The notes under the pieces are model-generated. The model was not told the DNA's origin. It did no database searches and saw only the letters and a program-made list of their open reading frames with translations. Shown in pieces: positions 1-11,925 of a stretch of 11,925 nucleotides of DNA. The position numbers and the translations under genes are program-made. Position 1 is the stretch's first letter, and every line of letters starts with the position of its first letter. This stretch comes from a virus: positions 1 through 11,925 of IMG/VR virus record IMGVR_UViG_3300045988_126893; one strand, 5' to 3'.

Positions 1-147
1 CACCTATGAGATTTAACAACTTGTTCACATTTTCCCCAAACGATTTAATATGCTAAAGTGCTAAATCAATAAAGTGGGACCAAACATAATTAGTTAAACA
101 ACAAAACAAAGACATAAAAATATTACACAAACAATACAAAATGTTTA

Positions 148-176
148 TTGCAAAAACCCATTGACAGATGTATAAT
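148..176 (+). promoter_or_regulatory. SigA/sigma70-type promoter inside ITR-L, firing inward
   Basis: -35 TTGCAA (148-153), a 17-nt spacer and -10 TATAAT (171-176), lying 52 nt upstream of the first ATG. Confidence 0.7.
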
Positions 177-181
177 ATTAT

Positions 182-200
182 TGTAATCATTAAGATTACA
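182..200 (+). promoter_or_regulatory. 7-bp inverted repeat at the predicted transcription start. Either an operator or a 5' mRNA stem-loop.
   Basis: TGTAATC (182-188), a 5-nt spacer and GATTACA (194-200), immediately downstream of the -10 hexamer. It is duplicated in ITR-R. Confidence 0.45.
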
Positions 201-228
201 CAACAGATATTTAAGGAGTTGTTACAAT

Positions 229-534
229 ATGAAAATTAACGGCAAGAACATCAAAGGAATAAAAAGAACTGTAGGTAGATACAACAAGATACCAGTTGAC
301 AAACGAACATCATTTAATATCTGGTATGACTGGGTAACTAGCACTGTTATGTTGATTAGAAATGATATTTTTGACCAAAGCAATATGGGAGATGAACTAA
401 TTTGCGTAAACGGGTTTATGTACAGACGTTACGACGATGTTAGCGACTGTATCAACTGTGAATACCCATATCTGGGCGCTGCAAATATATCAATGTCAAT
501 GCTACGCAGTGTTTTATCACAATACCTAGTTTAA
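229..534 (+). CDS. ITR-encoded 101-aa protein, copy L. Function unknown; basic N-terminus and one CxxC pair.
   Basis: AAGGAG at 213-218 lies 10 nt before the ATG at 229. The ORF is intact and a paralogue sits at 11392-11697 with 88 of 101 residues identical. I recognised no family motif. Confidence 0.8.
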   Translation: MKINGKNIKGIKRTVGRYNKIPVDKRTSFNIWYDWVTSTVMLIRNDIFDQSNMGDELICVNGFMYRRYDDVSDCINCEYPYLGAANISMSMLRSVLSQYLV

Positions 535-590
535 ACGTGAAATAGAATAAAAACAATATTAATTTCAGTAATCCTAAGGAGTTGATTAAA

Positions 591-773
591 ATGTACAAGT
601 ACATACTACTATTTAACGGGCGTTCAGCAGAGTTTACCGATTTACAAATCGCACTACACGTTGCGTATTTGTTGGCCGAAGTATTTGACGTGGATATAGT
701 TGAATACACTAACGACGGTACAAACGAGTACGACGAGATAAGCGGCATAACAAGTATGAAATCGAGGAGTTGA
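591..773 (+). CDS. Small acidic early protein (60 aa), function unknown
   Basis: AAGGAG at 576-581 lies 9 nt before the ATG at 591. The track start, TTG at 582, abuts the SD and is unlikely. Asp/Glu clearly outnumber Lys/Arg. The stop is TGA at 771-773. Confidence 0.65.
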   Translation: MYKYILLFNGRSAEFTDLQIALHVAYLLAEVFDVDIVEYTNDGTNEYDEISGITSMKSRS

Positions 774-781
774 GTTCGGGA

Positions 782-1360
782 ATGCCTAAACCAATAATAC
801 CTGAGAAATTTGTGCAAGGTCTATCAGACAAGGCACTAAACGCGCAAATTAAACGTTATTCAAAACGTGCTAATAGCCGCATAGAGCGACTAAAACGTGA
901 GGGACTGTGGAATAATTCCGCAAGCATTCAACGCAACTGGGAGGCAGTAACACACACTGCACCCATCGGCACCAATTCAGGACGTTTCAGTCGTTCAGTA
1001 TCAGGGACCAGAGAAACCCGAGAGGTGCAGTTAAAGCAGTTAATTCGTTTCCTGAACGCAAAAACCACTGTCAAGGACGTTAAAAACGAGATTACAACAT
1101 TCAAAACAAAGATAACCGCCTATACTGGTAACACCCCCAGTGTCGACATCGTCGGCGCAATTAATCGACTAATAGGTCGGTATATGGGCGAATTTAAACG
1201 GTTCGGAATGTCATCAGAACAAGCATACCATATCATCACAGAACTGGGATACGGCAAAGGCGAACAGGATGCCGAAGATAGCATACTGCACGCTATACAA
1301 ACTGCCCAATCGAATGATGATTTTTTCCAAAAGGTTACCGAGAACTATACATATTACTAG
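782..1360 (+). CDS. Candidate terminal (priming) protein, 192 aa
   Basis: It lies immediately upstream of the protein-primed polymerase, as phi29 gene 3 lies next to gene 2. GAGGAG at 764-769 precedes the ATG at 782; the track TTG at 770 has no spacing to the SD. The N-terminal helix KRYSKRANSRIERLKREG is Lys/Arg-rich. The C-terminal part is acidic and ends in YTYY. The call rests on position and composition only. Confidence 0.45.
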   Translation: MPKPIIPEKFVQGLSDKALNAQIKRYSKRANSRIERLKREGLWNNSASIQRNWEAVTHTAPIGTNSGRFSRSVSGTRETREVQLKQLIRFLNAKTTVKDVKNEITTFKTKITAYTGNTPSVDIVGAINRLIGRYMGEFKRFGMSSEQAYHIITELGYGKGEQDAEDSILHAIQTAQSNDDFFQKVTENYTYY

Positions 1361-1378
1361 CAGGCAACGAGGAGAGTT

Positions 1379-3547
1379 ATGGAGTACGTTACAACGTTTG
1401 ATATAAATACATTACCTAACATTGAAACAGTGCGCAAACACAATACCAGCAAATGTGCATATATCAATGCACCATTTGCGTTTGATATTGAAACAACGTC
1501 ATACATAGATAATGACGGCAATAAACGTGCGTTTATGTATGAATTTTCAATGTCGCTGAATGGGGTTCCCGTGTATGGTCGTTACTGGTATGAATTCATG
1601 GGGGTTCTGCGAAAACTGAAACAACGCTATAAATTATCGCGTAAAAAACGCCTAGTAATATATGTTCATAACCTAGCATACGAATTTCAGTTTTTGCAGG
1701 GTCGTTTTCCAGTGTCGGACGTGTTCGCCCGGGTAAATCGTCACCCTATGAAATGTGTGATTGATGACTGTTTTGAATTTAGATGTTCGTATGTTTTGTC
1801 AGGGTTATCCCTAGCAAAAACAGCAGACCAAATAACAATCCACGATATAACAAAATTGACTGGTGACCTAGACTATAAAATAATCAGAACACGCAAAACC
1901 CCCCTAACCGAACAAGAACTAGCATATTGTGAAAATGACGTACAGATTATATACTGGTTCATAAAACAGGAAATGTTACAAAATGGTAACAGTATAGCTA
2001 ATATCCCGTTGACAAAAACGGGGTATGTGCGTAGATACTGTTATGAATACATTTCAACACATACCAATTTTGAACAATACCGAACATTTATCAAACACTG
2101 CGCCCCTACAGAACCAGAATTGTTCATATTAATGCACAAATGTTTTGCAGGTGGATTTACACATGCTAACGTCCTGCACGTTGGCGAAACGTGTGAAAAC
2201 GTGGGTGCTATAGATTTTACTAGCAGTTACCCTGCGCAAATGGTTCGTCACAAATATCCTATGACAAAATTTTACAAAGTGCCCGTAAATAACCGGAAAC
2301 AGTTTGAAACACTGGTGAACGCGAAGGCGTGTTTGATTGAAATCTGTTTAAAAGGGGTTAATGCTAAAACCCCTAACCATATAATTAGTAGTTCAAAATG
2401 CCAGTACGTTGAAAACGGAATATATGACAACGGGCGTATAGTATCAGCAGATAAGGTGTACACCTATATCACAGATGTTGACTATAACGATATTTGTGAA
2501 TTTTATGAAATTGACAAAATTCACGTTGTTCAAATGTGGGTTGCTAATTATGGATATCTGCCTGATGAATTTCTGCAATGCGTTTTGACATTGTTTTCAG
2601 ATAAAACAACATTAAAAGGTGTAAAATGTAAAGAACAGGAATATTTGCTAAAAAAAGGAATGTTAAACAGTGCATACGGAATGAGCGTTACAAACCCCGT
2701 AAACAATGAATGCGAATTTGTGGAAAACGATGATGATATAGGCGGATTTTGGCAAGATGTTGAACAGGATATAAACGGCGCGTTGTTGGATAGCTACATA
2801 GGGAACAATAAACAATTTCTATTATATCAGTGGGGTGTATGGGTGACTGCGTGGGCTAGGCATGAACTGTTCAGGGGTGTTTTGAAAATGGGGATTGACG
2901 TTGTATACTGCGATACTGATAGCATAAAATACCTACACCCCGAAAAATACAAAACGTGGATTGACGATTATAACGAACGTGTATTCAATGATATGTTGAA
3001 ACGCTGTGACGAAATAGGTGTTAGCCGTGATATGGTAAACCCCGTTACAATCAGGGGTGAACATACCCCCCTAGGGGTATTTGACTATGAGAAGACCTAC
3101 AAATATTTCAAAACACTAGGCGCGAAACGTTACGCATTTTCATACAATGGTGATGATTTTAGTATAACTGTTTCAGGATTGAACAAAAAAACGGCAGTGC
3201 CGTATATAATGGAATACTGTGAAAATCATAAAATCAGCCCGTTTGATTTTTTTGATGATAATATGTATATCCCTGCAGTCTATACAGATAGTAACGGCAA
3301 TGTTAAATATCCCACGGGCAAATCAACACTGTCATATAGTAACATAGGTGATGATTTTTCTGACAAAATCACCGACTACCTAGGCGAAACTGATGTTGTT
3401 GACGAAAACAGTTATATTCACATGACAGAACAGGACTATAGTCTCAGCCTAACGGTCGCGTTTTTGGAATATATTTCTAATTCACAATACGTTGACGGGG
3501 CTATGGAATGCCCTAAACCTGATTATCTGAAAATTTTAAAAATATGA
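1379..3547 (+). CDS. Protein-primed family-B DNA polymerase (phi29 gp2-like), 722 aa
   Basis: Exonuclease motifs are FDIET (ExoI), HNLAYEF (ExoII) and YCENDV (ExoIII). Polymerase motifs are IDFTSSYPAQM (A), KKGMLNSAYG (B), YCDTDS (C, nt 2906-2923) and LGAKRY (KxY). Motifs A and C nearly match remembered phi29 DVNSLYPAQM and YCDTDS. GAGGAG lies at 1369-1374. Confidence 0.95.
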   Translation: MEYVTTFDINTLPNIETVRKHNTSKCAYINAPFAFDIETTSYIDNDGNKRAFMYEFSMSLNGVPVYGRYWYEFMGVLRKLKQRYKLSRKKRLVIYVHNLAYEFQFLQGRFPVSDVFARVNRHPMKCVIDDCFEFRCSYVLSGLSLAKTADQITIHDITKLTGDLDYKIIRTRKTPLTEQELAYCENDVQIIYWFIKQEMLQNGNSIANIPLTKTGYVRRYCYEYISTHTNFEQYRTFIKHCAPTEPELFILMHKCFAGGFTHANVLHVGETCENVGAIDFTSSYPAQMVRHKYPMTKFYKVPVNNRKQFETLVNAKACLIEICLKGVNAKTPNHIISSSKCQYVENGIYDNGRIVSADKVYTYITDVDYNDICEFYEIDKIHVVQMWVANYGYLPDEFLQCVLTLFSDKTTLKGVKCKEQEYLLKKGMLNSAYGMSVTNPVNNECEFVENDDDIGGFWQDVEQDINGALLDSYIGNNKQFLLYQWGVWVTAWARHELFRGVLKMGIDVVYCDTDSIKYLHPEKYKTWIDDYNERVFNDMLKRCDEIGVSRDMVNPVTIRGEHTPLGVFDYEKTYKYFKTLGAKRYAFSYNGDDFSITVSGLNKKTAVPYIMEYCENHKISPFDFFDDNMYIPAVYTDSNGNVKYPTGKSTLSYSNIGDDFSDKITDYLGETDVVDENSYIHMTEQDYSLSLTVAFLEYISNSQYVDGAMECPKPDYLKILKI

Positions 3548-3561
3548 AAGGAGTGGTAAAC

Positions 3562-3894
3562 ATGGGTTGTACTGGCAATTACCTAAACGCTAGTGAAATA
3601 TGTGATTACAACACGGCTATGAAACAGTTAGCCGGGGCTGTCATTATACGATTAATCAATGATATGCAACAGAAAAACTATTGCATAAATTATTCCACGG
3701 ATGTAAACTATCGTAAACGTAAATTGTTCTATAGTGCCGTGGAATATCCCCTGCGTTATCCTGAATGGCTGAATTTTTGGCTAGCTACTGCAGATATGGA
3801 TACATATGCAGATGATATAATTGCAATGGCACGTGACAAATTTAAACAGGGGTATATTGAACCCCTGCGGAAAAAAGGAGTAAAGAATGAATAA
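3562..3894 (+). CDS. Hypothetical 110-aa protein between the polymerase and the ATPase
   Basis: AAAGGAG at 3547-3553 lies 8 nt before the ATG at 3562. An alternative ATG at 3544 overlaps the polymerase stop as ATGA. I recognised no catalytic motif. Confidence 0.65.
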   Translation: MGCTGNYLNASEICDYNTAMKQLAGAVIIRLINDMQQKNYCINYSTDVNYRKRKLFYSAVEYPLRYPEWLNFWLATADMDTYADDIIAMARDKFKQGYIEPLRKKGVKNE

Positions 3895-5005
3895 AATAAT
3901 TAACAAAATAATGGGAGCCCCAGTTGATGAGTATTACAGTTTAAAACGAATACTGAAAACTAATGCTACCTATAACATTATTTTCGGTAAACGTTCAAAC
4001 GGCAAAACATTCAGCGTTGTAGAACGGGCGTTAGAACACGGGTGGAAACTAGCATACATCAGGCGGTTCGACGAGGAAATAACTAGAAAAAATCTAAATA
4101 ATTTAGTATGTGCTGACCATGATATTGCGAAACATACCCACGGCCAATGGAATAGCTATTGTTTTCAGTCCAACTGTTTCTATTTTACACTGGTTGAAAA
4201 CGGCAAAGTTATAAAAAAATCGACTGAACCATTTATACATTGTTTCGCGTTGAACACTATGGAAACCACAAAGGGTGCAGATAATGGATATTTTCCTATT
4301 ATTTTGTTTGACGAATTCATAACTAGACGTTTTTATCTGCCTAACGAATTTGTATTATTCCAAAATATCCTATCATCTATCATACGTGACAGGGACGGTA
4401 GTGAAATATATATGTTAGCAAATACAGTCAATCAGTCATGCCCGTATTTTGCTGAAATGGGATTGACAAGAATTGACAAAATGAAACAGGGTGAAATACA
4501 AATAGTTGATTATGGCGACAGCGGTTTGCGCGTTGCCGTTGAATACTGCAACGACACCACAAACACGATGAAAACTGCTAAATATTTTGCGTTCGATAAC
4601 CCACAATTAAAAATGATAACTAACGGAAAATGGGAAATTAAGGGTTACCCACATTGTCCCATTTCTGTTAACCGTGACAACATAGCGTTTGTATTTTTTG
4701 TAATTTTCGAAGAACACATAATCAGGGGAAATATAGTCAATGACAACGGACACGTTTTTGTTATGTTTAATCCACACACCAACACCAACAGAACACCAGC
4801 AGAAAACGATGTAACATATAGTTTGGACGTTTCCCCGTATCCTATGTGGTGTCAATCTATCAACGAAACACCCACGGACGCACATAAAATCATCAGGGAC
4901 CTAATAAACCGCAATAAAATGTATTTTTCTGACAATACCACGGGCGAAATAATACGAAACTGGATAAAACAACAGGCACAAATAAAACAAACGTTTCTAT
5001 CATAA
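3887..5005 (+). CDS. DNA encapsidation (packaging) ATPase, phi29 gp16-like, 372 aa
   Basis: Walker A is GKRSNGKT (nt 3986-4009) and Walker B is IILFDEF. The block ILFDEFITRRFYLPNEFVLFQNILSSIIRDRDGSEIYMLANTVNQSCPYF parallels remembered gp16 IVFDEFIREKDNSNYIPNEVSALLNLMDTVFRNRERVRCICLSNAVSVVNPYF. AAGGAG lies at 3875-3880. Confidence 0.85.
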   Translation: MNKIINKIMGAPVDEYYSLKRILKTNATYNIIFGKRSNGKTFSVVERALEHGWKLAYIRRFDEEITRKNLNNLVCADHDIAKHTHGQWNSYCFQSNCFYFTLVENGKVIKKSTEPFIHCFALNTMETTKGADNGYFPIILFDEFITRRFYLPNEFVLFQNILSSIIRDRDGSEIYMLANTVNQSCPYFAEMGLTRIDKMKQGEIQIVDYGDSGLRVAVEYCNDTTNTMKTAKYFAFDNPQLKMITNGKWEIKGYPHCPISVNRDNIAFVFFVIFEEHIIRGNIVNDNGHVFVMFNPHTNTNRTPAENDVTYSLDVSPYPMWCQSINETPTDAHKIIRDLINRNKMYFSDNTTGEIIRNWIKQQAQIKQTFLS

Positions 5006-5009
5006 TAGT

Positions 5010-5040
5010 AAACCCCTATACCAATACAGTATAGGAGTTT
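5010..5040. terminator. Hairpin in the convergent intergenic gap. Probable bidirectional terminator.
   Basis: The stem is AAAC-c-CCTATAC (5010-5021) paired with GTATAGG-a-GTTT (5029-5040), with a 7-nt loop. It lies 5 nt after the ATPase stop. The flanks are A/T-rich but there is no long T run. Confidence 0.5.
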
Positions 5041-5050
5041 ATAATATTCC

Positions 5051-5084
5051 CGTCACTGGTACACGAATTAATCAGTGCGTGACG
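5051..5084 (-). terminator. Second, weaker hairpin after the stop of the tail gene
   Basis: CGTCAC (5051-5056) pairs with GTGACG (5079-5084); an alternative pairing is CACTG with CAGTG. The loop is long and there is no U tract. Confidence 0.25.
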
Positions 5085-5094
5085 TTGATTCCCA

Positions 5095-7182
5095 TTATAC
5101 AAATACACCGCTAGTCAATAACTGTGACAGCATGGTTTTTTCTGTGTCAGTGCATTTAAACGATATTTCAGGGTTGCTAACTACAGTGAACCCCGTAAAA
5201 TCGGACAGTTTTCCAGTTTGTTCGCACGCATAACCTACCGTTCGCCCATAATTGCTAGGTACGTTTAAAACAGGTCTGTCAATAATGAAATAACAGTGTT
5301 GCGGTTGCCACGTTGCAACAGACGGGGAACTTGAACCTGATTCTTGGTAATTAGTACCAGTTGCAAAACCACTATACAATTTTTCAGCACTGCTAACCAT
5401 ACCGCCAATATTTCCACTAGCAATTGACGTTACACCACCAACAGCACCGCTAACTACATTGCCGATAATTGTACTAGCGTAATTTGCACTGTCTGTTCCC
5501 GTCATTGGAATTGATACACCTACTACACCATTTCTGTAAATAAATGGTATATCGTCTTTAAACACGATTGCCGTTCCTGCACCCGTGGTATAGTCGACTA
5601 TCATTTTTACTGAAATTCTATGCCCCATAAATTCGGCTGTGGAAACAGGCACAACGCCTATATATGGGATATATAACTGTGCTGTTGTGTATGGTTCATA
5701 ATCCAGGAAATTTTTGAATTTAGTAAAAAATGTACATTCACCCAGGTCAATTAAACTGTTTACATTTTCCGTTAATTTAATACCGTTTACCCCCGTGTTT
5801 GTTCTGCCGATTACAATTGATTCAGCATTCGTTGCAGAATTTTTTAACGCTACATTAAACGGAAATAAACGCAAATCAATAATACCGTTCATAGGATTTT
5901 CACCCATTAACGCTAACCCTTTTACAATTTCTTGAAATTTTGTTTCGTCAGCGTTCCATAAGAAATCGGCTAATTGACGAACACTGTTTGATGTTACTGC
6001 GAAACTGCGGTTAAACACGTTAACGTTTGACAGTGTGGGTTTGTTTAGGTCTATTCTATCGGTGTAGTTGTTAGGGTCTGTATTACCTATTCCATTAAAT
6101 GGGTTATTCTGCCAATCGGTGGGGTTATCCCATGTTGTTTGAATTTGTTTTGCATTTTCTGCACCCTCTGAATATTTTCCAGTGATTTTTCCATCATCTG
6201 AAATAATACCACAATATATACCATTTTGGTTTAGATTTTCCTGCTTTGCTAAATTTGTCGAAAATGTGTAATAAGTTCCCATTCTGCTATATAGTTTATG
6301 AATGTTTTCGATACTATAATCAAAAACTGGTAAATATCCCGTATACTCTTTGCTACCAATAGCAAAATATGTTTTATCCCACAAATCTGCATAGCCTAAA
6401 TTTGCATAATAATATGTTTCGGTATTAAAATAACTAGCGTATAGTTCATCACATCCATAAATAAACGTATTTAAAACAGCGTGTGACTGGTCATAATCGC
6501 CAAAATATAACGCACCATAAATATCATAATTATCCACCATAGAATTTTTTGAATATGTGCAAAACGGTATTATATTAAAACCCTGACAGCGTTGTCTGTC
6601 ACCAATCGCCGTTCTAGAATAATATGGTACCGCATATATACCTACAACATTGTATGTATCTTTGTACTGTTTTTCAAACGTATCTACGTCAACATCTAAT
6701 TTATCACCAAATGACGATACGTCGCCCATACCAGAATATTCAAATCTATACGCTACCACTCGAATCAAAAAAAGAAAATCTTTTAACTTATACTCGGTGC
6801 CGAAATAATAGCCTAACCCATCATTCGTATCACTATCATATGCCAGTCTATGAAATGTAGTCTTAGCTGGGGTAGCATATACGGGGCGATTTTGTAATGT
6901 ATCATTAGTTTTTAATCTGCCAAACATAGCACATACACCACTAGGTGTGTTAGTACCGTTTACGAATTCAGATTGATGCGGTTTCCTATACCCACTGCGG
7001 ACAAAATAATCATCAGGGGGATTAAAATCGACGGCATAAAAAATTGATTCGTCAATAGGATTATTTAACTGTAATTTACCATTATCAATTAATTCCTGCA
7101 TCGACTGCGTGGTTTTTATTCCTTTTAGATAGTCTAATGATATAGTTCTATCACTGGAATAAATTTCCTTATTTAATTTCAT
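5095..7182 (-). CDS. Tail knob / distal tube protein, C-terminal portion (phi29 gp9-like core), fused to a lineage-specific N-terminal module of about 380 aa. 695 aa in total.
   Basis: GGAGGG lies 7 nt before the ATG at 7182. Three C-terminal blocks resemble remembered gp9. EPYTTAQLYIPYIG matches MMYPYCVTEITD. The Gly-rich hydrophobic loop IIGNVVSGAVGGVTSIASGNIGGMVSS (about nt 5353-5472) matches IMGMIGGGISAGASAAGGSALGMASS. The tail TDTEKTMLSQLLTSGV matches NNNDLQEIRTIFDNGI. Residues 1-380 have no match I recognise. Confidence 0.6.
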   Translation of the reverse strand: MKLNKEIYSSDRTISLDYLKGIKTTQSMQELIDNGKLQLNNPIDESIFYAVDFNPPDDYFVRSGYRKPHQSEFVNGTNTPSGVCAMFGRLKTNDTLQNRPVYATPAKTTFHRLAYDSDTNDGLGYYFGTEYKLKDFLFLIRVVAYRFEYSGMGDVSSFGDKLDVDVDTFEKQYKDTYNVVGIYAVPYYSRTAIGDRQRCQGFNIIPFCTYSKNSMVDNYDIYGALYFGDYDQSHAVLNTFIYGCDELYASYFNTETYYYANLGYADLWDKTYFAIGSKEYTGYLPVFDYSIENIHKLYSRMGTYYTFSTNLAKQENLNQNGIYCGIISDDGKITGKYSEGAENAKQIQTTWDNPTDWQNNPFNGIGNTDPNNYTDRIDLNKPTLSNVNVFNRSFAVTSNSVRQLADFLWNADETKFQEIVKGLALMGENPMNGIIDLRLFPFNVALKNSATNAESIVIGRTNTGVNGIKLTENVNSLIDLGECTFFTKFKNFLDYEPYTTAQLYIPYIGVVPVSTAEFMGHRISVKMIVDYTTGAGTAIVFKDDIPFIYRNGVVGVSIPMTGTDSANYASTIIGNVVSGAVGGVTSIASGNIGGMVSSAEKLYSGFATGTNYQESGSSSPSVATWQPQHCYFIIDRPVLNVPSNYGRTVGYACEQTGKLSDFTGFTVVSNPEISFKCTDTEKTMLSQLLTSGVFV

Positions 7183-7684
7183 GTGTTAGCCCTCCGTTCT
7201 CTGCTGTTCCTTGATTACTTCCACCTCCTGCCACATTTAGCACAAAGTTGTAACTATTTGCTGTGGCGGTATCTAAATTAAAATCACCTCCGGTAAACTC
7301 AATTACTTTAATTTCCTTATTACCTTTTAATGGTAACATTGTATCGGGAATGTATGTACTGCCTATGTTTTCGTTTCTAGTCACTAGAAACGTGCTGGAT
7401 AGTAGCACGTTTCGGTATGTGTGCAGAACGTCCAGTCTGCAGTGTATCAATATCGTGTTTGCGGTTTCGACTGTTTGACCCGTTACAAAATAGTACCTAT
7501 CAAAAAATGATATGTAGCAGTAGTTAGCGTTGAATGTTTCAGATGTACACCTAACACGTAACGTAGGTGTTACCATTTCAGCACTATCTAACAACTGGCA
7601 CGTGTAATCTATCTGATTAGTCAATGTTTTTGTAATCGTTCGTGGGTCATCTGCCGTGTGATATGTGTTTAGTATAAATGCCAT
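7169..7684 (-). CDS. Tail knob / distal tube protein, N-terminal domain encoded as a separate 171-aa gene
   Basis: AGGGGTGA lies 4 nt before the ATG at 7684. The track start at 7702 has no SD. PTLRVRCTSETFNANYCYISFFDRYYFVTGQTVETANTILIHCRLDVLHTYRNVLLSSTFLVTRNE aligns with remembered gp9 [72 protein letters not shown]. Confidence 0.6.
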   Translation of the reverse strand: MAFILNTYHTADDPRTITKTLTNQIDYTCQLLDSAEMVTPTLRVRCTSETFNANYCYISFFDRYYFVTGQTVETANTILIHCRLDVLHTYRNVLLSSTFLVTRNENIGSTYIPDTMLPLKGNKEIKVIEFTGGDFNLDTATANSYNFVLNVAGGGSNQGTAENGGLTHEIK

Positions 7685-7706
7685 ATTTTCACCCCTATTC
7701 AAATAT

Positions 7707-7734
7707 TAGCAGGGATATTATTATACCCCTGCTA
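7707..7734 (-). terminator. Hairpin directly after the capsid gene. Probable leaky terminator or attenuator.
   Basis: On the minus strand the sequence reads TAGCAGGG, a 12-nt loop, CCCTGCTA (an 8-bp stem), then AUAUUUG. It lies 12 nt after the MCP stop. Confidence 0.45.
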
Positions 7735-7745
7735 TATTATAGATT

Positions 7746-8900
7746 TTATGCCGCGTCATCGATAACAAACACAATGCAGTTTTCTGCCGTATCGTTCATG
7801 TACATAGCATCCCATTTATAATAGAATTTGGTTGTTTCATTGCTAGGGTTATAGAATGATGTTACCCTATAGTTTTCGCAACAAACCATTGCCGCGTCCC
7901 TATCAAACAGAACACCTACAACACCATTCTGGGTTACTGCCGTTTCAGAACCCTCGATAGTGACGTCAATTTTACTAGCCTCAGCAAACGCAACGTTTTC
8001 ATCTGTGCCGGAACCCTGCCACCATGGAACCGTGTCATATGTGCCAACTTTTACCAAATCATCATGAAAAGTGTCCGCCTGCATATTGGTTATCATTGCC
8101 TTGTCAAATTGTGACAACAGTGTTAGGTGCTGATATTCGTACGGGGTAAATGTTACATATGATGTATCATTATACAACATTGACATTTCTGTGATATAAT
8201 CACGATATAGCTGTATCTGTGTAGCCGCATATCTTAGGAAATTTTTATCAGTCAGTGCCTTTTCAGCCGTCAGCGTTGCTTTATATGCTGTGTTGTATTC
8301 TGTCAGCAGATTTACAACGTTATTTTTGCTGTGAATTTTCTGCGCAATCAGGTTATTTACTGTACGTTTTGCCAGTGACGTATTATAGAACGCCATTGCA
8401 GAACGTATACGATTTTCAATGTTTGCAAAAAATGCGTTCATAGTGGCAGGACCTGCAAAACTTGATTTGACCTGCTCATAACCATATGATACCTTGGTTT
8501 CATATGTTATCCTCTTATTCCAGTATTTGGTTGAAACATTTGGCGGTGTAAAAACTGCGAAATCGTCATATTTGGTGCCTGCCACCAGTTTCCATGTATC
8601 GTTCTCTGTAGCCTTTGGCAAATCAACCCTGATTTTTTCCAAAACTGAACCATATTCCCAGTTATCACGGATAATGTCAGGTGCACCGCCCGTGTATTTG
8701 CGGTCAACGTTAATCACCCTGCCGACCTTATCCATAATTTTTTTGACGTAGTTGTCAACGCCCCCGTCAGTGGTCAGAACATTAGTGAACGATCTGCCGA
8801 TATCGACTATGTTTGACAGGTCTTCGTTGACCACAGCACCCTCGCCTATCATTTCCTTGGAAATTTCATTCAGAATGGTTGCTATCTGTGTTACTTTCAT
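7746..8900 (-). CDS. Major capsid protein, phi29 gp8-like HK97 fold without the C-terminal Ig-like domain, 384 aa
   Basis: AGGAG lies 9 nt before the ATG at 8900. The C-terminal block LFDRDAAMVCCENYRVTSFYNPSNETTKFYYKWDAMYMNDTAENCIVFV parallels remembered gp8 [49 protein letters not shown]. The central block also corresponds: MNAFFANIENRIRSA against FESFVSSIINAIYNSA. Confidence 0.8.
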   Translation of the reverse strand: MKVTQIATILNEISKEMIGEGAVVNEDLSNIVDIGRSFTNVLTTDGGVDNYVKKIMDKVGRVINVDRKYTGGAPDIIRDNWEYGSVLEKIRVDLPKATENDTWKLVAGTKYDDFAVFTPPNVSTKYWNKRITYETKVSYGYEQVKSSFAGPATMNAFFANIENRIRSAMAFYNTSLAKRTVNNLIAQKIHSKNNVVNLLTEYNTAYKATLTAEKALTDKNFLRYAATQIQLYRDYITEMSMLYNDTSYVTFTPYEYQHLTLLSQFDKAMITNMQADTFHDDLVKVGTYDTVPWWQGSGTDENVAFAEASKIDVTIEGSETAVTQNGVVGVLFDRDAAMVCCENYRVTSFYNPSNETTKFYYKWDAMYMNDTAENCIVFVIDDAA

Positions 8901-8922
8901 ACTACATTACTCCTTTTTTTGT

Positions 8923-9618
8923 TTAATATATTGACAAACAAATTAGATTTGCTATATCATTTACAAATTGTGATAGGGCTGAAAAATCAGCTATTTCACG
9001 TTCAGATTGTATCATCTGCTGTGACGTGGTTACACCGATGTTGCCACTGCGTTTAAATTCATGTGTGGTTTTTTCAGTTCCCGTTGTGGTTGTTTTACCC
9101 GTTGACGAATTTTCTGTGCTGGTTGTGGTAGTGGTATCTGCAGTACCCTTATTTTGGTTGATAAAATCTGCGGTGTTATCATAGGTTGTTACTGCAGATG
9201 TATTTGTGCTACTGTCTGTGGCGTTTCCGCTAGATGTTCCACTAGCAGTTGTATTTGAAACTAAATCAGGGGTTCGCACGTCCGTTCCGTTTTCGGTCAT
9301 GGAATAGTTTTCTATGGGGTTATATTCCAGTTTTTCCGTAGCTAACAGTTTATTGTATTTGGTCTGATAGGTACGGGCGAATATAATGCAATAGTTAGTC
9401 AGCTGTGCTATTGCGTTAGTAGTTTCCTGCATGGTTGTGGGGTATTTTTTAAACACCAATCGTTCAGCATTATACAGTTGAAATAAATCAAATATTTCTG
9501 CAGGGGTTTCGCTGAAATTAATGAACGTTTTTACACCGCTGAAAATATTTTTGAATGTTGATATATTTTCATTCCAGTAATCAACAGTCGCAAACCCGTA
9601 GTTATCTATTTCACACAT
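8923..9618 (-). CDS. Virion structural protein, candidate lower collar (head-tail tube connector), 231 aa with a Thr/Ser-rich central segment
   Basis: AAGGGGTGA lies 5 nt before the ATG at 9618. The track start at 9660 has no SD. The gene sits between the portal and MCP genes. The N-terminal part is helical-looking. The polar Thr/Ser-rich segment of about 75 aa (nt 9061-9291) is bracketed by YNPIENY and GNIGVTTSQQMI, which fits a long beta-hairpin tube. The assignment is inferential; a scaffold role is not excluded. Confidence 0.4.
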   Translation of the reverse strand: MCEIDNYGFATVDYWNENISTFKNIFSGVKTFINFSETPAEIFDLFQLYNAERLVFKKYPTTMQETTNAIAQLTNYCIIFARTYQTKYNKLLATEKLEYNPIENYSMTENGTDVRTPDLVSNTTASGTSSGNATDSSTNTSAVTTYDNTADFINQNKGTADTTTTTSTENSSTGKTTTTGTEKTTHEFKRSGNIGVTTSQQMIQSEREIADFSALSQFVNDIANLICLSIY

Positions 9619-9799
9619 TGCGGTCACCCCTTGCGGACTGTGTTCCAAAATAGAACGCAATGACTGTGGTATAGATGTTCAGCAGTTCATTCCCCGTTAT
9701 TCTGCCGTTCATTGTTATCACCATTACTGTTATCGTCAGCAGTAGCGTTACTATCGATTTCACTGTTATCAGTTTCACCAATTTGTCTTTGGTTGTCAT
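9611..9799 (-). CDS. 62-aa protein with two predicted TM segments (holin-like), overprinted on the portal 3' end
   Basis: AAAGGGGGG lies 7 nt before the ATG at 9799. Hydrophobic segments are IVTLLLTITVMVITM and LLNIYTTVIAFYFG, and the C-terminus is charged. It overlaps the portal by 113 nt in another frame and the next gene by 8 nt (ATGTGTGA). Confidence 0.4.
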   Translation of the reverse strand: MTTKDKLVKLITVKSIVTLLLTITVMVITMNGRITGNELLNIYTTVIAFYFGTQSARGDRNV

Positions 9800-10679
9800 T
9801 ATTTAGCCCCCCTTTCCATTCTTTTGAAAAATCAACCGATATATTTGTGTTGAACATTGTGTTGATTTTTTTAACTGATTCGCGCAGGTTGTTCAGCATA
9901 TCAATAACGTTGATTATCAAACATTCATCATTAACGGCTATTTCTTCGCCGCTGACGCGTTCGCGTTTCATGTTATAGTTTGCATTTACACCAATTGAAT
10001 GATAGAATTGTGCCAAAATATACTGGTTCAGTTCGACCAGTTCTTTAATGTACTGGGAACCGCCTGCAGTGCTTTCAATCATGGGGTTGATTTTTAACGC
10101 ATTGATTAAATCATTTAAAACAACCTCATAGGGGTCCCCATCATACATTCGTTGTATTGCGTTTTCGGCAGATATCTTCTGCGCCTGATTACCTGCAGTT
10201 ACTAGGGCGGTTATACGTGTATTGCGTTGCGCTATGTTTATTGATGAAATGTTATCAGCTAACAGTTGCGCAGTTGTGGATATTAACCCGAACAAACCGC
10301 CCGTTTCACCATTACTACATATTTTGTCAGTATCGGTTAGATACATTAAAACACCCGTTTTGTCTATATCTACTATTTTACTGCCTAGAATTGGATTTGC
10401 TATAATGAATTGTGACGGGTAGTAATAAACGTTAGGTTCGCCACCATAATTGCCGTTTAGTGCATACAGTTTCGAATTAAAATCAGTCCATATAACACGA
10501 CCCTGCGTAATTAGTGTTATTGCTAAAAAATTTTCGTCAACTGTTTCAGGTAGGTTCTCCCACGTGAACATATTTGTTACACGATTTAACAATGTTTTCA
10601 CATAGTAGTTATACATTGATTTTACCTTGTTGACCTTAACGCATTCAGGTAACCATTCCCGTGACTTGTCTTTGCTCAT
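9687..10679 (-). CDS. Portal / upper collar connector protein, phi29 gp10-like, 330 aa
   Basis: AAAGGGGTGA precedes the ATG at 10679. FTWENLPETVDENFLAITLITQG matches remembered gp10 [23 protein letters not shown]. Size is similar, and the N-terminus is basic. The C-terminal tail is Asn/Asp-rich and looks disordered. Confidence 0.85.
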   Translation of the reverse strand: MSKDKSREWLPECVKVNKVKSMYNYYVKTLLNRVTNMFTWENLPETVDENFLAITLITQGRVIWTDFNSKLYALNGNYGGEPNVYYYPSQFIIANPILGSKIVDIDKTGVLMYLTDTDKICSNGETGGLFGLISTTAQLLADNISSINIAQRNTRITALVTAGNQAQKISAENAIQRMYDGDPYEVVLNDLINALKINPMIESTAGGSQYIKELVELNQYILAQFYHSIGVNANYNMKRERVSGEEIAVNDECLIINVIDMLNNLRESVKKINTMFNTNISVDFSKEWKGGLNNDNQRQIGETDNSEIDSNATADDNSNGDNNERQNNGE

Positions 10680-10705
10680 TTTCTCACCCCTTTGTCTATC
10701 GACAG

Positions 10706-10732
10706 AACGTGGTAACTTTGTGTTACCACGTT
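10706..10732 (-). promoter_or_regulatory. Perfect 11-bp-stem hairpin or palindrome between the SSB and portal genes
   Basis: AACGTGGTAAC (10706-10716), a 5-nt loop and GTTACCACGTT (10722-10732). No U tract follows on either strand. Confidence 0.6.
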
Positions 10733-10746
10733 ACAGCCGATTGAAT

Positions 10747-11085
10747 TTACTGTATCTGTAGTGAATAGAATTCGCCGTTTTTAGATTTTCCTTTTACAAA
10801 TCTTACCTTTACTTCTTCGCCTGCGTTCAGACACTCGCTGAGAATATCTGCCAATTCGTCCATGTGGTCAATGCAAACCTTTGACGCGAACCCAAAAACG
10901 CCGACATCTGTTGCAATATATCCTATATCACATGGGGTCTGATTCCTATCCAAACCGCCATTTTCTACTACTGCGCATCCTGAAACAGTGTGCCACTCTG
11001 CCGCCTCTGCTGTTTTGATTGAAATACTACCGCTCTTTGCATTAAAAATATCCTTCTTGTTCATGTTGACATTAAAACCGTTCAT
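10747..11085 (-). CDS. Single-stranded DNA-binding protein, phi29 gp5-like, 112 aa
   Basis: AGAGGT lies 8 nt before the ATG at 11085. The C-terminus LADILSECLNAGEEVKVRFVKGKSKNGEFYSLQIQ matches remembered p5 LIDLVTRHKLETFKVKVVQGTSSKGNVFFSLQLSL. The N-terminal IFNAKSGS matches IFNAQTGG. Confidence 0.55.
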   Translation of the reverse strand: MNGFNVNMNKKDIFNAKSGSISIKTAEAAEWHTVSGCAVVENGGLDRNQTPCDIGYIATDVGVFGFASKVCIDHMDELADILSECLNAGEEVKVRFVKGKSKNGEFYSLQIQ

Positions 11086-11354
11086 TTTAATTTACCTCTT
11101 TCTGTTAAAATTTTGTAAATATTTGTCATACATTACAGGGTCAGTGCCAGCTCTTAATTTACTATAATAGGGGTCTGTCTATGCCTGCCTTGTATACACT
11201 CACTTAACCGCCATGTGTGTAAATTATCGTGCGTATGTAAAATCATACCTACAATTTTTCAATATTATATTATAATATTGGCGGTTTGGAATAGGGCTGA
11301 TTATTTATTCACGTCAACCCTGCGGACCGTGTGAAATCTATTAAATGTGGTTAC
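11086..11354 (-). ncRNA. Long non-coding leader, or a candidate structured RNA (pRNA-like), transcribed from the 11361-11389 promoter
   Basis: This is the largest non-coding stretch in the genome and has no SD-preceded ORF. It has a start-site hairpin (11342-11361) and a second hairpin at 11308-11335. An 8-bp long-range complement pairs 11206-11213 with 11279-11286. There is a 19-nt AT palindrome at 11261-11279. An AU-rich hairpin at 11114-11137 is followed by AAAAUUUU. RNA identity is hypothetical. Confidence 0.3.
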
Positions 11355-11361
11355 ACATTTA
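11342..11361 (-). promoter_or_regulatory. Inverted repeat at the predicted start site of the right-arm promoter
   Basis: AAATGTG (11343-11349) pairs with CACATTT (11354-11360) across a 4-nt loop, and one flanking T-A pair extends the stem. Confidence 0.4.
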
Positions 11362-11389
11362 GTATAACACATAAATAGTGAATTGTCAA
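11361..11389 (-). promoter_or_regulatory. Near-consensus SigA promoter with an extended -10, heading the right arm
   Basis: The minus strand reads TTGACA (11389-11384), a 17-nt spacer ending in TGt, then TATACT (11366-11361). It starts 2 nt after the stop of the ITR-R gene. Confidence 0.75.
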
Positions 11390-11391
11390 TG

Positions 11392-11697
11392 TTAAACTAT
11401 GTATTGTGATAAAACACTGCGTAGCATTGACATTGATATATTTGCATTGCCTAGATATGGGTATTCACAGTTGATACAGTCGCTAACATCATCGTAACGT
11501 CTGAACGTTATCCCGATATCGCAAAATATTTCATCTCCCATATTGCTTTGGGCAAACATATCATTTCTAATCAACATAACAGTGCTAGTTACGCAGTCAT
11601 ACCAAATATTAAATGATGTTCGTTTGTCAACTGGTATCTTGTTGTATCTACCTACAGTTTTTTTTATTCCTTTGATGTTCTTGCCGTTAATTTTCAT
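11392..11697 (-). CDS. ITR-encoded 101-aa protein, copy R (diverged paralogue of 229-534)
   Basis: It mirrors copy L exactly in position, with an identical SD and 5' region. It differs by 13 amino acids and 3 synonymous changes, and the ORF is intact. Confidence 0.8.
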   Translation of the reverse strand: MKINGKNIKGIKKTVGRYNKIPVDKRTSFNIWYDCVTSTVMLIRNDMFAQSNMGDEIFCDIGITFRRYDDVSDCINCEYPYLGNANISMSMLRSVLSQYIV

Positions 11698-11725
11698 ATT
11701 GTAACAACTCCTTAAATATCTGTTG

Positions 11726-11744
11726 TGTAATCTTAATGATTACA
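11726..11744 (-). promoter_or_regulatory. Mirror copy of the 7-bp inverted repeat at the ITR promoter start site
   Basis: Reverse complement of 182-200. Confidence 0.45.
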
Positions 11745-11749
11745 ATAAT

Positions 11750-11778
11750 ATTATACATCTGTCAATGGGTTTTTGCAA
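11750..11778 (-). promoter_or_regulatory. SigA-type promoter inside ITR-R, firing inward (mirror of 148-176)
   Basis: The sequence is identical to the left promoter because it lies in the perfect part of the ITR. Confidence 0.7.
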
Positions 11779-11925
11779 TAAACATTTTGTATTGTTTGTG
11801 TAATATTTTTATGTCTTTGTTTTGTTGTTTAACTAATTATGTTTGGTCCCACTTTATTGATTTAGCACTTTAGCATATTAAATCGTTTGGGGAAAATGTG
11901 AACAAGTTGTTAAATCTCATAGGTG

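Follow-up and report, generated by a model that had tools for sequence, protein, structure and literature searches.

The inverted terminal repeats (ITRs) of phi29-like phages vary greatly in length. Those of the Bacillus phages measure 6–16 bp and are of the AAAGTA or AAATGTA type (PMC6266182, PMC9965433), whereas 25–30 bp were described for the Clostridium phages (PMC3362512) and 61 bp for Idefix (PMC6356687). Sequence comparison gave 84–219 bp for the ITRs of Astrid, Phanie and DU_PP_III, and according to their genome records those of Cp-1, P1 and asccphi28 comprise 236, 350 and 577 bp. Here we analyse the ITR of IMG/VR virus record IMGVR_UViG_3300045988_126893, whose positions 1 to 11,925 (the whole stretch of DNA that was analysed, hereafter referred to as the window) are the linear genome (~11.9 kb) of a human-gut podophage that is phi29-like and protein-primed. 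Each of its two 534-nt arms contains a complete gene for a protein of 101 amino acids (aa). The original prediction, made from the letters of the window, had held that phages of the phi29 group have ITRs of just a few bp, which is correct for the Bacillus phages but not for other phi29-likes with repeats of up to 577 bp.

Mycoplasma phage P1 (Delislevirus P1, NC_002515) resembles the window in being a protein-primed podophage of ~11.7 kb with a long ITR. Each arm of the P1 repeat has an annotated inward promoter and ends at the start of the first gene, an arrangement that equals the presumed ancestral state of the window. It differs in that the P1 ITR holds no coding sequence while that of the window spans the whole 101-aa gene, and the genes of the two phages are not closely related. 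Lactococcus phage asccphi28 (EU438902), whose ITR is as long as that of the window, and Streptococcus phage Cp-1 (NC_001825) are likewise phi29-like with annotated promoter elements in long ITRs; their records, however, annotate no coding sequence there, in contrast to the full gene with copy-specific differences present in the window arms. Astrithrvirus-like phages share with the window a genome size of ~11.5–11.9 kb, the order of terminal protein (TP) candidate, DNA polymerase (PolB) and ATPase genes on the left arm, and the possession of ITRs. However, their ITRs are gene-free, nucleotide-level similarity to the window is absent, structural and replication genes share one strand in them instead of forming two convergent units, and their hosts are Proteobacteria whereas that of the window is presumed to be a member of the Bacillota. 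ITRs were mostly 20–270 bp long in a survey of about 40 near-complete relatives from IMG/VR, with three exceeding 350 bp; the automatic comparison of the ITR end with the first open reading frame (ORF) preceded by a Shine-Dalgarno site was unreliable for lineages without such sites. No described isolate of the phi29-like group was found with a whole coding sequence inside its ITR. Long promoter-bearing ITRs are thus already known in phi29-likes, and the whole diploid gene within the repeat is the new element.

Anatomy of the terminal repeat

A repeat finder run on the window placed the arms at positions 1–534 (plus strand) and 11392–11925 (minus strand), with 96% complementarity over 534 nt. 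Base-by-base comparison revealed 19 mismatches at positions 266, 321, 333, 369, 374, 397, 400, 407, 408, 410, 415, 417, 419, 422, 435, 474, 478, 479 and 526 of the left arm, and none in 1–265. The claim that the outer 265 bp are identical and that all differences lie in 266–534 was therefore confirmed; the probability that all 19 mismatches fall into the inner 269 of 534 nt by chance is P = 2e-6. Position 534 completes the stop codon of the 101-aa ORF, and directly past it identity between the arms drops to ~33%.

The elements of the arm follow each other in a compact order. A terminal segment (1–45), the putative protein-primed origin, contains the motif ACATTTTCCCCAAAC at 28–42 (mirror 11884–11898). 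An inward-facing early promoter of the σ70 type (TTGCAA-17-TATAAT; 148–176, plus strand; mirror 11778–11750, minus strand) is predicted solely by its consensus match (10 of 12 positions). Just 3' of its −10 box lies the palindrome TGTAATC-ATTAA-GATTACA (182–200; mirror 11726–11744), a candidate either for an operator or for a stem-loop at the 5' end of the transcript. It is followed by the Shine-Dalgarno sequence AAGGAG (213–218, plus strand; mirror 11708–11713), 10 nt 5' of the ATG, and by the 101-aa gene, whose left copy occupies 229–534 (plus strand) and whose right copy occupies 11392–11697 (minus strand). Promoter, palindrome, Shine-Dalgarno sequence and inward-pointing ORF are thus all found where they had been predicted in each arm, and the gene is present twice. 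Within it, a zone in which the first left/right difference moves from strain to strain (243–332; mirror 11594–11683) adjoins one of 16 fixed copy-specific differences (333–526; mirror 11400–11593), in which the cluster at 397–422 encodes aa 57–65 of a variable β-hairpin.

Single-copy relatives and the history of the repeat

Five close relatives of the window (L113, L129, L017, L015 and L135) possess the 101-aa gene at the right end only. Their ATPases are ~95% identical to that of the window at the amino acid level, and whole-contig comparison of L015 and L017 with the window gave a genome DNA identity of ~85%. In L113, L129, L017 and L015, for which both ends are available, the promoter, the palindrome, the Shine-Dalgarno sequence and the start codon are common to both ends; the ends then diverge within a few bases of the ATG (~235 in window coordinates), and the left end leads into a different small ORF. 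This is the point at which ITR identity breaks in relatives, a comparison that had been suggested together with the original prediction. The position of the promoter is kept in the relatives, with TATACT as the second hexamer. The arms of the palindrome are kept at both ends of all of them while its loop varies in sequence and length (5–7 nt), and the stretch TAAGGAGTTGTTACAATATG at the Shine-Dalgarno site is kept at both ends even where the downstream genes differ. In the right arm of L008, a 12-nt tandem duplication (GATTACACAACA) directly follows the palindrome, near L008 position 215 (~200–205 in the window).

Because the ends of the relatives diverge at the ATG, the 534-bp ITR can be dissected into an older cassette of ~235 bp and a duplicated gene body. 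The two gene copies are 91.6% identical in 333–534 but at most 83% identical to any other sampled copy. Across strains, by contrast, left copies are at least 99% and right copies at least 99.5% identical among themselves, and the exact left and right proteins occur in three and seven contigs, respectively. That the copies are mutual closest relatives and form tight left and right clades argues for a single duplication prior to the divergence of the strains, with the right end, where alone the single-copy relatives have the gene, being ancestral and the left copy derived.

We consider it likely that the ITR of the window is a composite that arose by duplication of the right-end first gene onto the left end and whose outer part evolves in concert. 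As we infer its molecular route, the outer ~235 nt would represent the older ITR comprising the terminal origin, the inward early promoter, the palindrome, the Shine-Dalgarno sequence and the start codon, a cassette that would drive a different first gene at each end of the close relatives. In the lineage of the window, the right-end first gene would have been copied once to the left end, where it would have replaced the original first gene and shifted the end of the ITR inwards as far as the stop codon at 534. In L017 the right-end copy (11561–11867) is frameshifted, which indicates that the 101-aa gene can be lost.

Alternatively, the left copy might have been imported from the right end of a co-infecting related strain, in which case the divergence of the inner part would predate the two-copy state. 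Such a capture is compatible with the hypervariability of the 101-aa family between strains (52–99% amino acid identity, as compared with at least 90% for the ATPase within a cluster of 222 sequences), with the resemblance of the left-type hairpin ELICVNGFMY to ELICVNGLMF of the single right-end copy in L135, and with the exchange of ends between genomes that is exemplified by L129 and L015. However, the left and right copies resemble each other at the DNA level (91.6%) more than either resembles L135 or any other sampled copy, and no donor strain with a left-type gene at its right end is present among the sampled copies. We thus regard allele capture as unlikely and favour duplication within the lineage.

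A second case of an ITR enclosing a gene was found in L070 (IMGVR_UViG_3300045988_066757), an uncultivated and undescribed member of the same broad clade with 38% ATPase identity to the window. Its 617-bp ITR, one of the three in the survey that exceed 350 bp, encloses a complete 97-aa ORF unrelated to the 101-aa gene and ends 10 nt past the stop codon, whereas the 366-bp ITR of its relative L094 ends 48 nt into the homologous ORF. L070 is thus an independent instance of ITR extension over the first gene, an event that took place at least twice in the clade; its arms are 100% identical, owing either to a recent event or to assembly collapse. In a wider context, diploid genes are found in the terminal inverted repeats of poxviruses, of chloroviruses and of linear Streptomyces replicons, and in the fungal linear plasmids kalilo and maranhar ORFs begin inside the terminal repeats. 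All these repeats have in common with that of the window that they contain whole genes or gene starts and that their boundaries are moved by recombination. The replicons concerned, however, are much larger or unrelated and, the fungal plasmids aside, have other end structures and modes of replication; they are analogies only. Turnover of the Streptomyces repeats has been described (PMC7205883).

Exchange between the genome ends

The identical outer part of the repeat does not end at the same position in all strains. L119 and L121 show their first left/right difference at 243, the window at 266 and L120 at 333. At 204–206 both arms of the window have a private state, while every other strain has a different state at both ends; likewise, C277 is private to L120 and present in both of its copies. 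Strain-private variants shared by both arms imply copying between the ends. In the zone from the promoter to the ATG, left/right identity within a genome amounts to 88–100%, as compared with 61–93% for most pairs of genomes. The arms are therefore more alike within than between genomes, which together with the private variants is the pattern of concerted evolution. The proposal that only the outer part is homogenised is supported by the absence of differences in the outer 265 nt and by these shared variants, with the amendment that the boundary depends on the strain.

It could be argued that no homogenisation takes place, and that strong purifying selection preserved the outer part while the inner differences reflect ordinary divergence after the duplication. 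The promoter, the palindrome arms and the stretch from the Shine-Dalgarno sequence to the ATG are indeed conserved across the relatives. Yet variation among strains and relatives is seen in the outer zone (positions 66, 71, 190–191, 204–206, 243 and 276–279), and selection of this kind would not account for arms that agree within a genome, down to its private variants, where most genomes differ from each other. This explanation appears improbable to us.

To account for concerted evolution, we infer that recombination or gene conversion between the ends would have kept the outer part identical after the duplication. This might occur by single crossovers in which the left end of one molecule recombines with the right end of a second one, whereby everything outside the crossover would be swapped. 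Because a crossover anywhere in the repeat would exchange all positions external to it, exchange would be most frequent at the outer positions. Repair within a panhandle that a displaced strand forms would have a similar effect. Both routes would be strongest near the terminus and fade inward, and the inner 200 nt would have kept the 16 copy-specific differences, most of which lead to amino acid changes in the variable β-hairpin. Restoration of ITR homology via panhandles was proposed for adenovirus and PRD1 (PMC11886824, with reference to Savilahti & Bamford 1993 and Wang et al. 1991), panhandles having never been directly observed (PMC11886824). According to this proposal, these protein-primed linear genomes would keep their ends alike by end-to-end copying, which would also explain the concerted evolution seen in the window; their ITRs, however, are ~100 bp long and non-coding, while that of the window is coding.

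A repeat found at the ends of a contig may also have been generated during assembly, by mirroring of one end or by formation of a chimera of two strains, the real genome having the 101-aa gene at one end. This was the finding named at the outset as capable of overturning the original prediction. The perfect identity of the outer repeat and the termination of both window ends at the same repeat position are as expected for one node of a de Bruijn graph that is used twice, and contigs of the window phage stop exactly k or k − 1 nt outside the first left/right difference. In addition, the 220-bp 'ITR' of L088 (IMGVR_UViG_3300045988_040311) in the IMG/VR survey starts with Illumina adapter sequence (GTGACTGGAGTTCAGACGTGTGCTCTTCCG; positions 1–45), so at least the outer part of that repeat is artefactual. 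On the other hand, each gene copy of the window is joined to a different unique flank (the side of the 60-aa and TP candidate genes versus the side of a promoter and the 112-aa gene), and the 16 fixed differences between the copies lie within k-mer reach of these flanks. Moreover, the gene is present at both ends of L119, L120, L121 and L122, complete or near-complete contigs from other samples and assemblers that were recovered by look-up of one ATPase variant. Together with the window/L014, the two-copy arrangement thus occurs in at least five contigs of different studies and assemblers, and the same 16 left/right differences (333–526) recur in every genome with both copies. Many contigs of the window phage break exactly at the repeat, and many contigs of 0.5–1.2 kb consist of the repeat alone, the expected behaviour of a genuine repeat in de Bruijn graphs. 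At the contig level, the suspicion of an artefact did not hold up; we consider this explanation already largely refuted and its remaining probability very small indeed.

The assembly graphs nevertheless limit how far outward the two arms can be told apart. In L120, assembled with k = 141, the distance from either contig end to the first left/right difference is exactly 141 nt, and Logan contigs (k = 31), among L120 and L123–125 which were examined, stop exactly 30 nt outside the difference at 526. As the contigs stop at k or k − 1, sequence located more than one k-mer beyond the outermost difference is unassignable to one arm. When the comparison is confined to the phaseable part (140–534), 140–265 is still devoid of differences (P = (269/395)^19, ~7e-4). 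In L120, 139 identical nucleotides (194–332) adjoin 16 differences in 202 nt. Both results argue that the identity gradient is real.

Several observations weigh against the history proposed here or narrow its reach. The perfect identity of ~1–139 and the symmetric ends of the window could be due to one graph node having been used twice. The left copy of L022 carries right-type bases at 478–479, which means that internal conversion patches also occur and that inward spread from the terminus does not explain everything. One pairwise comparison between genomes, that of the right ends of L129 and L015, gave 100% identity, so that exchange between genomes also involves entire ends. The conservation of the outer part could in addition reflect purifying selection acting on origin and promoter. 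The ratio dN/dS between the left and right copies is ~0.9 overall, and the excess of 10 nonsynonymous over 1 synonymous left/right differences in aa 47–66 is suggestive but comprises too few sites to prove selection. No terminal protein was recognised by sequence in Pfam or PHROGs. Finally, the true termini probably lie outside the window: 5–6 additional outer nucleotides (ATAGT and ATAGGT) are present at the right end of L008, a contig of the same species, and at the left end of L015, a relative, from which it follows that the window probably lacks a few terminal bases (~5 nt or more). Its first letters, at which reiterated terminal nucleotides for sliding-back were looked for, are CACC.

The identical outer 265 bp had also been proposed as a possible marker of the functional replication origin; in this reading, no other part needs or allows homogenisation. 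All 19 differences do fall within 266–534, and protein-primed genomes have their origins at the termini (PMC4974454, PMC6266182). However, the boundary is found at 243, 266 or 333 depending on the strain and is thus not fixed. Besides the palindrome, the identical zone also includes elements without an origin function, namely the promoter, the ribosome-binding site and 12–35 initial codons. Furthermore, ITRs of relatives comprise 84–219 bp and those of Bacillus phi29-likes 6–16 bp (PMC9965433), and the ITR of the single-copy relatives ends approximately at the start codon. The sole motif shared with distant relatives is confined to the outermost ~45 nt: a similar sequence (AACATTTCCCAAC) occurs at ~22–38 in L070, L074, L094, L096 and L107, distant members of the clade with 38% ATPase identity, the form common to them and the window being ACATTT(T)CCC(C)AA(A)C. 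For these reasons the 265/266 boundary is not an origin marker, and equating the outer 265 bp with the origin is in our view very improbable. It is most likely the terminal segment 1–45 that holds the origin, with the motif at 28–42 as a candidate origin or end-binding site.

Genomic setting and the 101-aa protein

The assignment of the window to the phi29-like podophages is based on four gene products with Pfam matches above the gathering score or cut-off: a protein-primed family B DNA polymerase (1379–3547; PF03175 DNA_pol_B_2, E = 3.9e-9), the Gp16 packaging ATPase (3887–5005; PF05894), a phi29-type major capsid protein (7746–8900, minus strand; PF25622) and the GP10 connector (9687–10679, minus strand; PF05352). 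The polymerase had 60 tblastn matches to phi29-like phages; its nearest isolates are the Astrithrvirus-like phages, namely Salmonella phage Astrid with its relatives, Acinetobacter phage Phanie and Pectobacterium phage DU_PP_III (36–40% amino acid identity). A megablast comparison of the entire window with 50,697 phage records yielded no nucleotide-level match. The ICTV threshold for a genus is ~70% nucleotide identity; lack of a megablast match and the low PolB identity place the window outside the genus Astrithrvirus, for which Astrithrvirus astrithr served as the reference. Nor does it belong to the phi29 group proper (Salasmaviridae of Bacillus), given its 534-bp ITR as compared with 6–16 bp and a PolB that is ~24% identical to that of phage Goe1. 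Exact-protein look-ups recovered window proteins from human gut metagenomes, and a contig of ERZ913277 is 99.99% identical to the window. The σ70-type promoters, the strong Shine-Dalgarno sites and the gut origin suggest a host among the Bacillota.

The genes of the window are arranged in two convergent units with a terminator-like hairpin at their meeting point (near 5015–5035), the ATPase gene ending at 5005 and the gene for a 695-aa protein at 5095. Directly 5' of the polymerase gene, at the position of ORF002 in Astrid, a 196-aa ORF (770–1360) without Pfam or PHROG match is a positional candidate only for the terminal protein. The 60-, 196-, 116-, 112-, 177-, 245- and 695-aa proteins of the window had no match in Pfam or PHROGs. 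The 60-aa gene (591–773), located 3' of the left copy and homologous to a 61-aa gene of L017, is missing in the otherwise 96–98% identical strains L119–L122, in which the left copy is directly followed by the TP candidate gene. The relatives L017, L109, L111, L113, L129 and L135 encode a protein that binds single-stranded DNA (SSB, PF00436), at whose position the window has an unannotated 112-aa protein (10747–11085, minus strand); L109 and L111 also encode a CHAP lysin, and the window is without a recognisable lysin gene.

Between the 112-aa gene and the right copy of the 101-aa gene lies a non-coding stretch of 306 nt (11086–11391, minus strand), which is more conserved among relatives than the adjoining gene. 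It opens with the best promoter match at the right end (TTGACA-17-TATACT, preceded by TG; 11389–11361). RNAalifold on seven sequences returned 42 pairs, four of them with compensatory changes, and the single-sequence fold had z = −1.3. A search of the window against Rfam gave no match, so that no packaging RNA (pRNA) was recognised. The stretch may encode a structured RNA, perhaps the pRNA of the window phage, but is a candidate only.

The 101-aa protein has 101 homologues in metagenomes, none of which is named. Within this family the basic N-terminus and the C-terminus are conserved and the middle is hypervariable, and a family-wide pN/pS of 0.13–0.34 is evidence for a real gene under constraint. 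The AlphaFold model (pLDDT 95.8) predicts an α/β fold in which the variable segment forms a β-hairpin (aa 57–66) with strands at 57–60 and 63–66. According to Nei-Gojobori counting, 10 of the 15 nonsynonymous differences between the left and right copies lie within aa 47–66; expression from the two ends is thus predicted to yield two slightly differing forms of this early protein.

Searches for the function of the protein were uninformative. It had no tblastn match among phage records and no match in Pfam or PHROGs. Comparison of the AlphaFold model with PDB folds gave no match (best E = 0.6), and the only match in BFVD was weak (E = 5e-3) and concerned a 'Tectiviridae sp.' protein that is itself uncharacterised. 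A profile search of the family against PDB sequences found nothing meaningful, and one against 1.8 billion representative proteins returned seven matches but no informative relative. A p6-like end-binding protein, which would be of similar size with a very basic N-terminus, was considered but not adopted as no test result supported it. A 60%-identical homologue resides among small unannotated ORFs of a 28-kb contig (L136 10001–10324; ENA contig NODE_939), two genes 3' of a TnpB (OrfB_IS605) gene that provides no functional clue; the family is therefore not confined to the ends of small podophage genomes. Distant homologues (31–34% amino acid identity) are encoded within 10–430 nt of the ends of the 12–13 kb metagenome contigs L024–L028, and the position as first gene at the terminus seems to be conserved in these more distant phages. 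The 101-aa gene varies far more between strains than the ATPase gene and is lost or broken in some relatives. We speculate that it is an accessory early gene which possibly engages the host.

It is tempting to speculate further that the two ITR copies are maintained as two functional alleles of a fast-evolving immediate-early protein, a tentative idea that we regard as rather unlikely. If it were true, the hairpin (aa 57–66) would contact a polymorphic host target or defence, and the ITR would represent an expression cassette with two slots, active irrespective of which genome end is the first to arrive in the cell. Homogenisation would then be halted at ~333 by selection for different hairpins, and not by distance from the terminus alone.

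The ITR of the window is a variation on known phage end structures and does not overturn their current understanding. It provides a natural example of an ITR that has grown inward over a whole gene in a protein-primed phage, with the states before and after this event both sampled. It also adds population-level evidence that genome ends exchange sequence with a strain-dependent conversion boundary, which bears on the old and still unproven model of panhandle formation and end repair for adenovirus, PRD1 and relatives. The moving boundary at 243, 266 or 333 would read out the reach of end-to-end conversion in protein-primed replication. For practical purposes, the fact that outermost ITR identity in short-read assemblies can be a product of the assembler calls for caution. 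In this clade of gut phages, one early-expression cassette is common to both genome ends, and its recognition would be useful for annotating metagenomic genomes with ITRs and for designing orthogonal replicons of the phi29 type.

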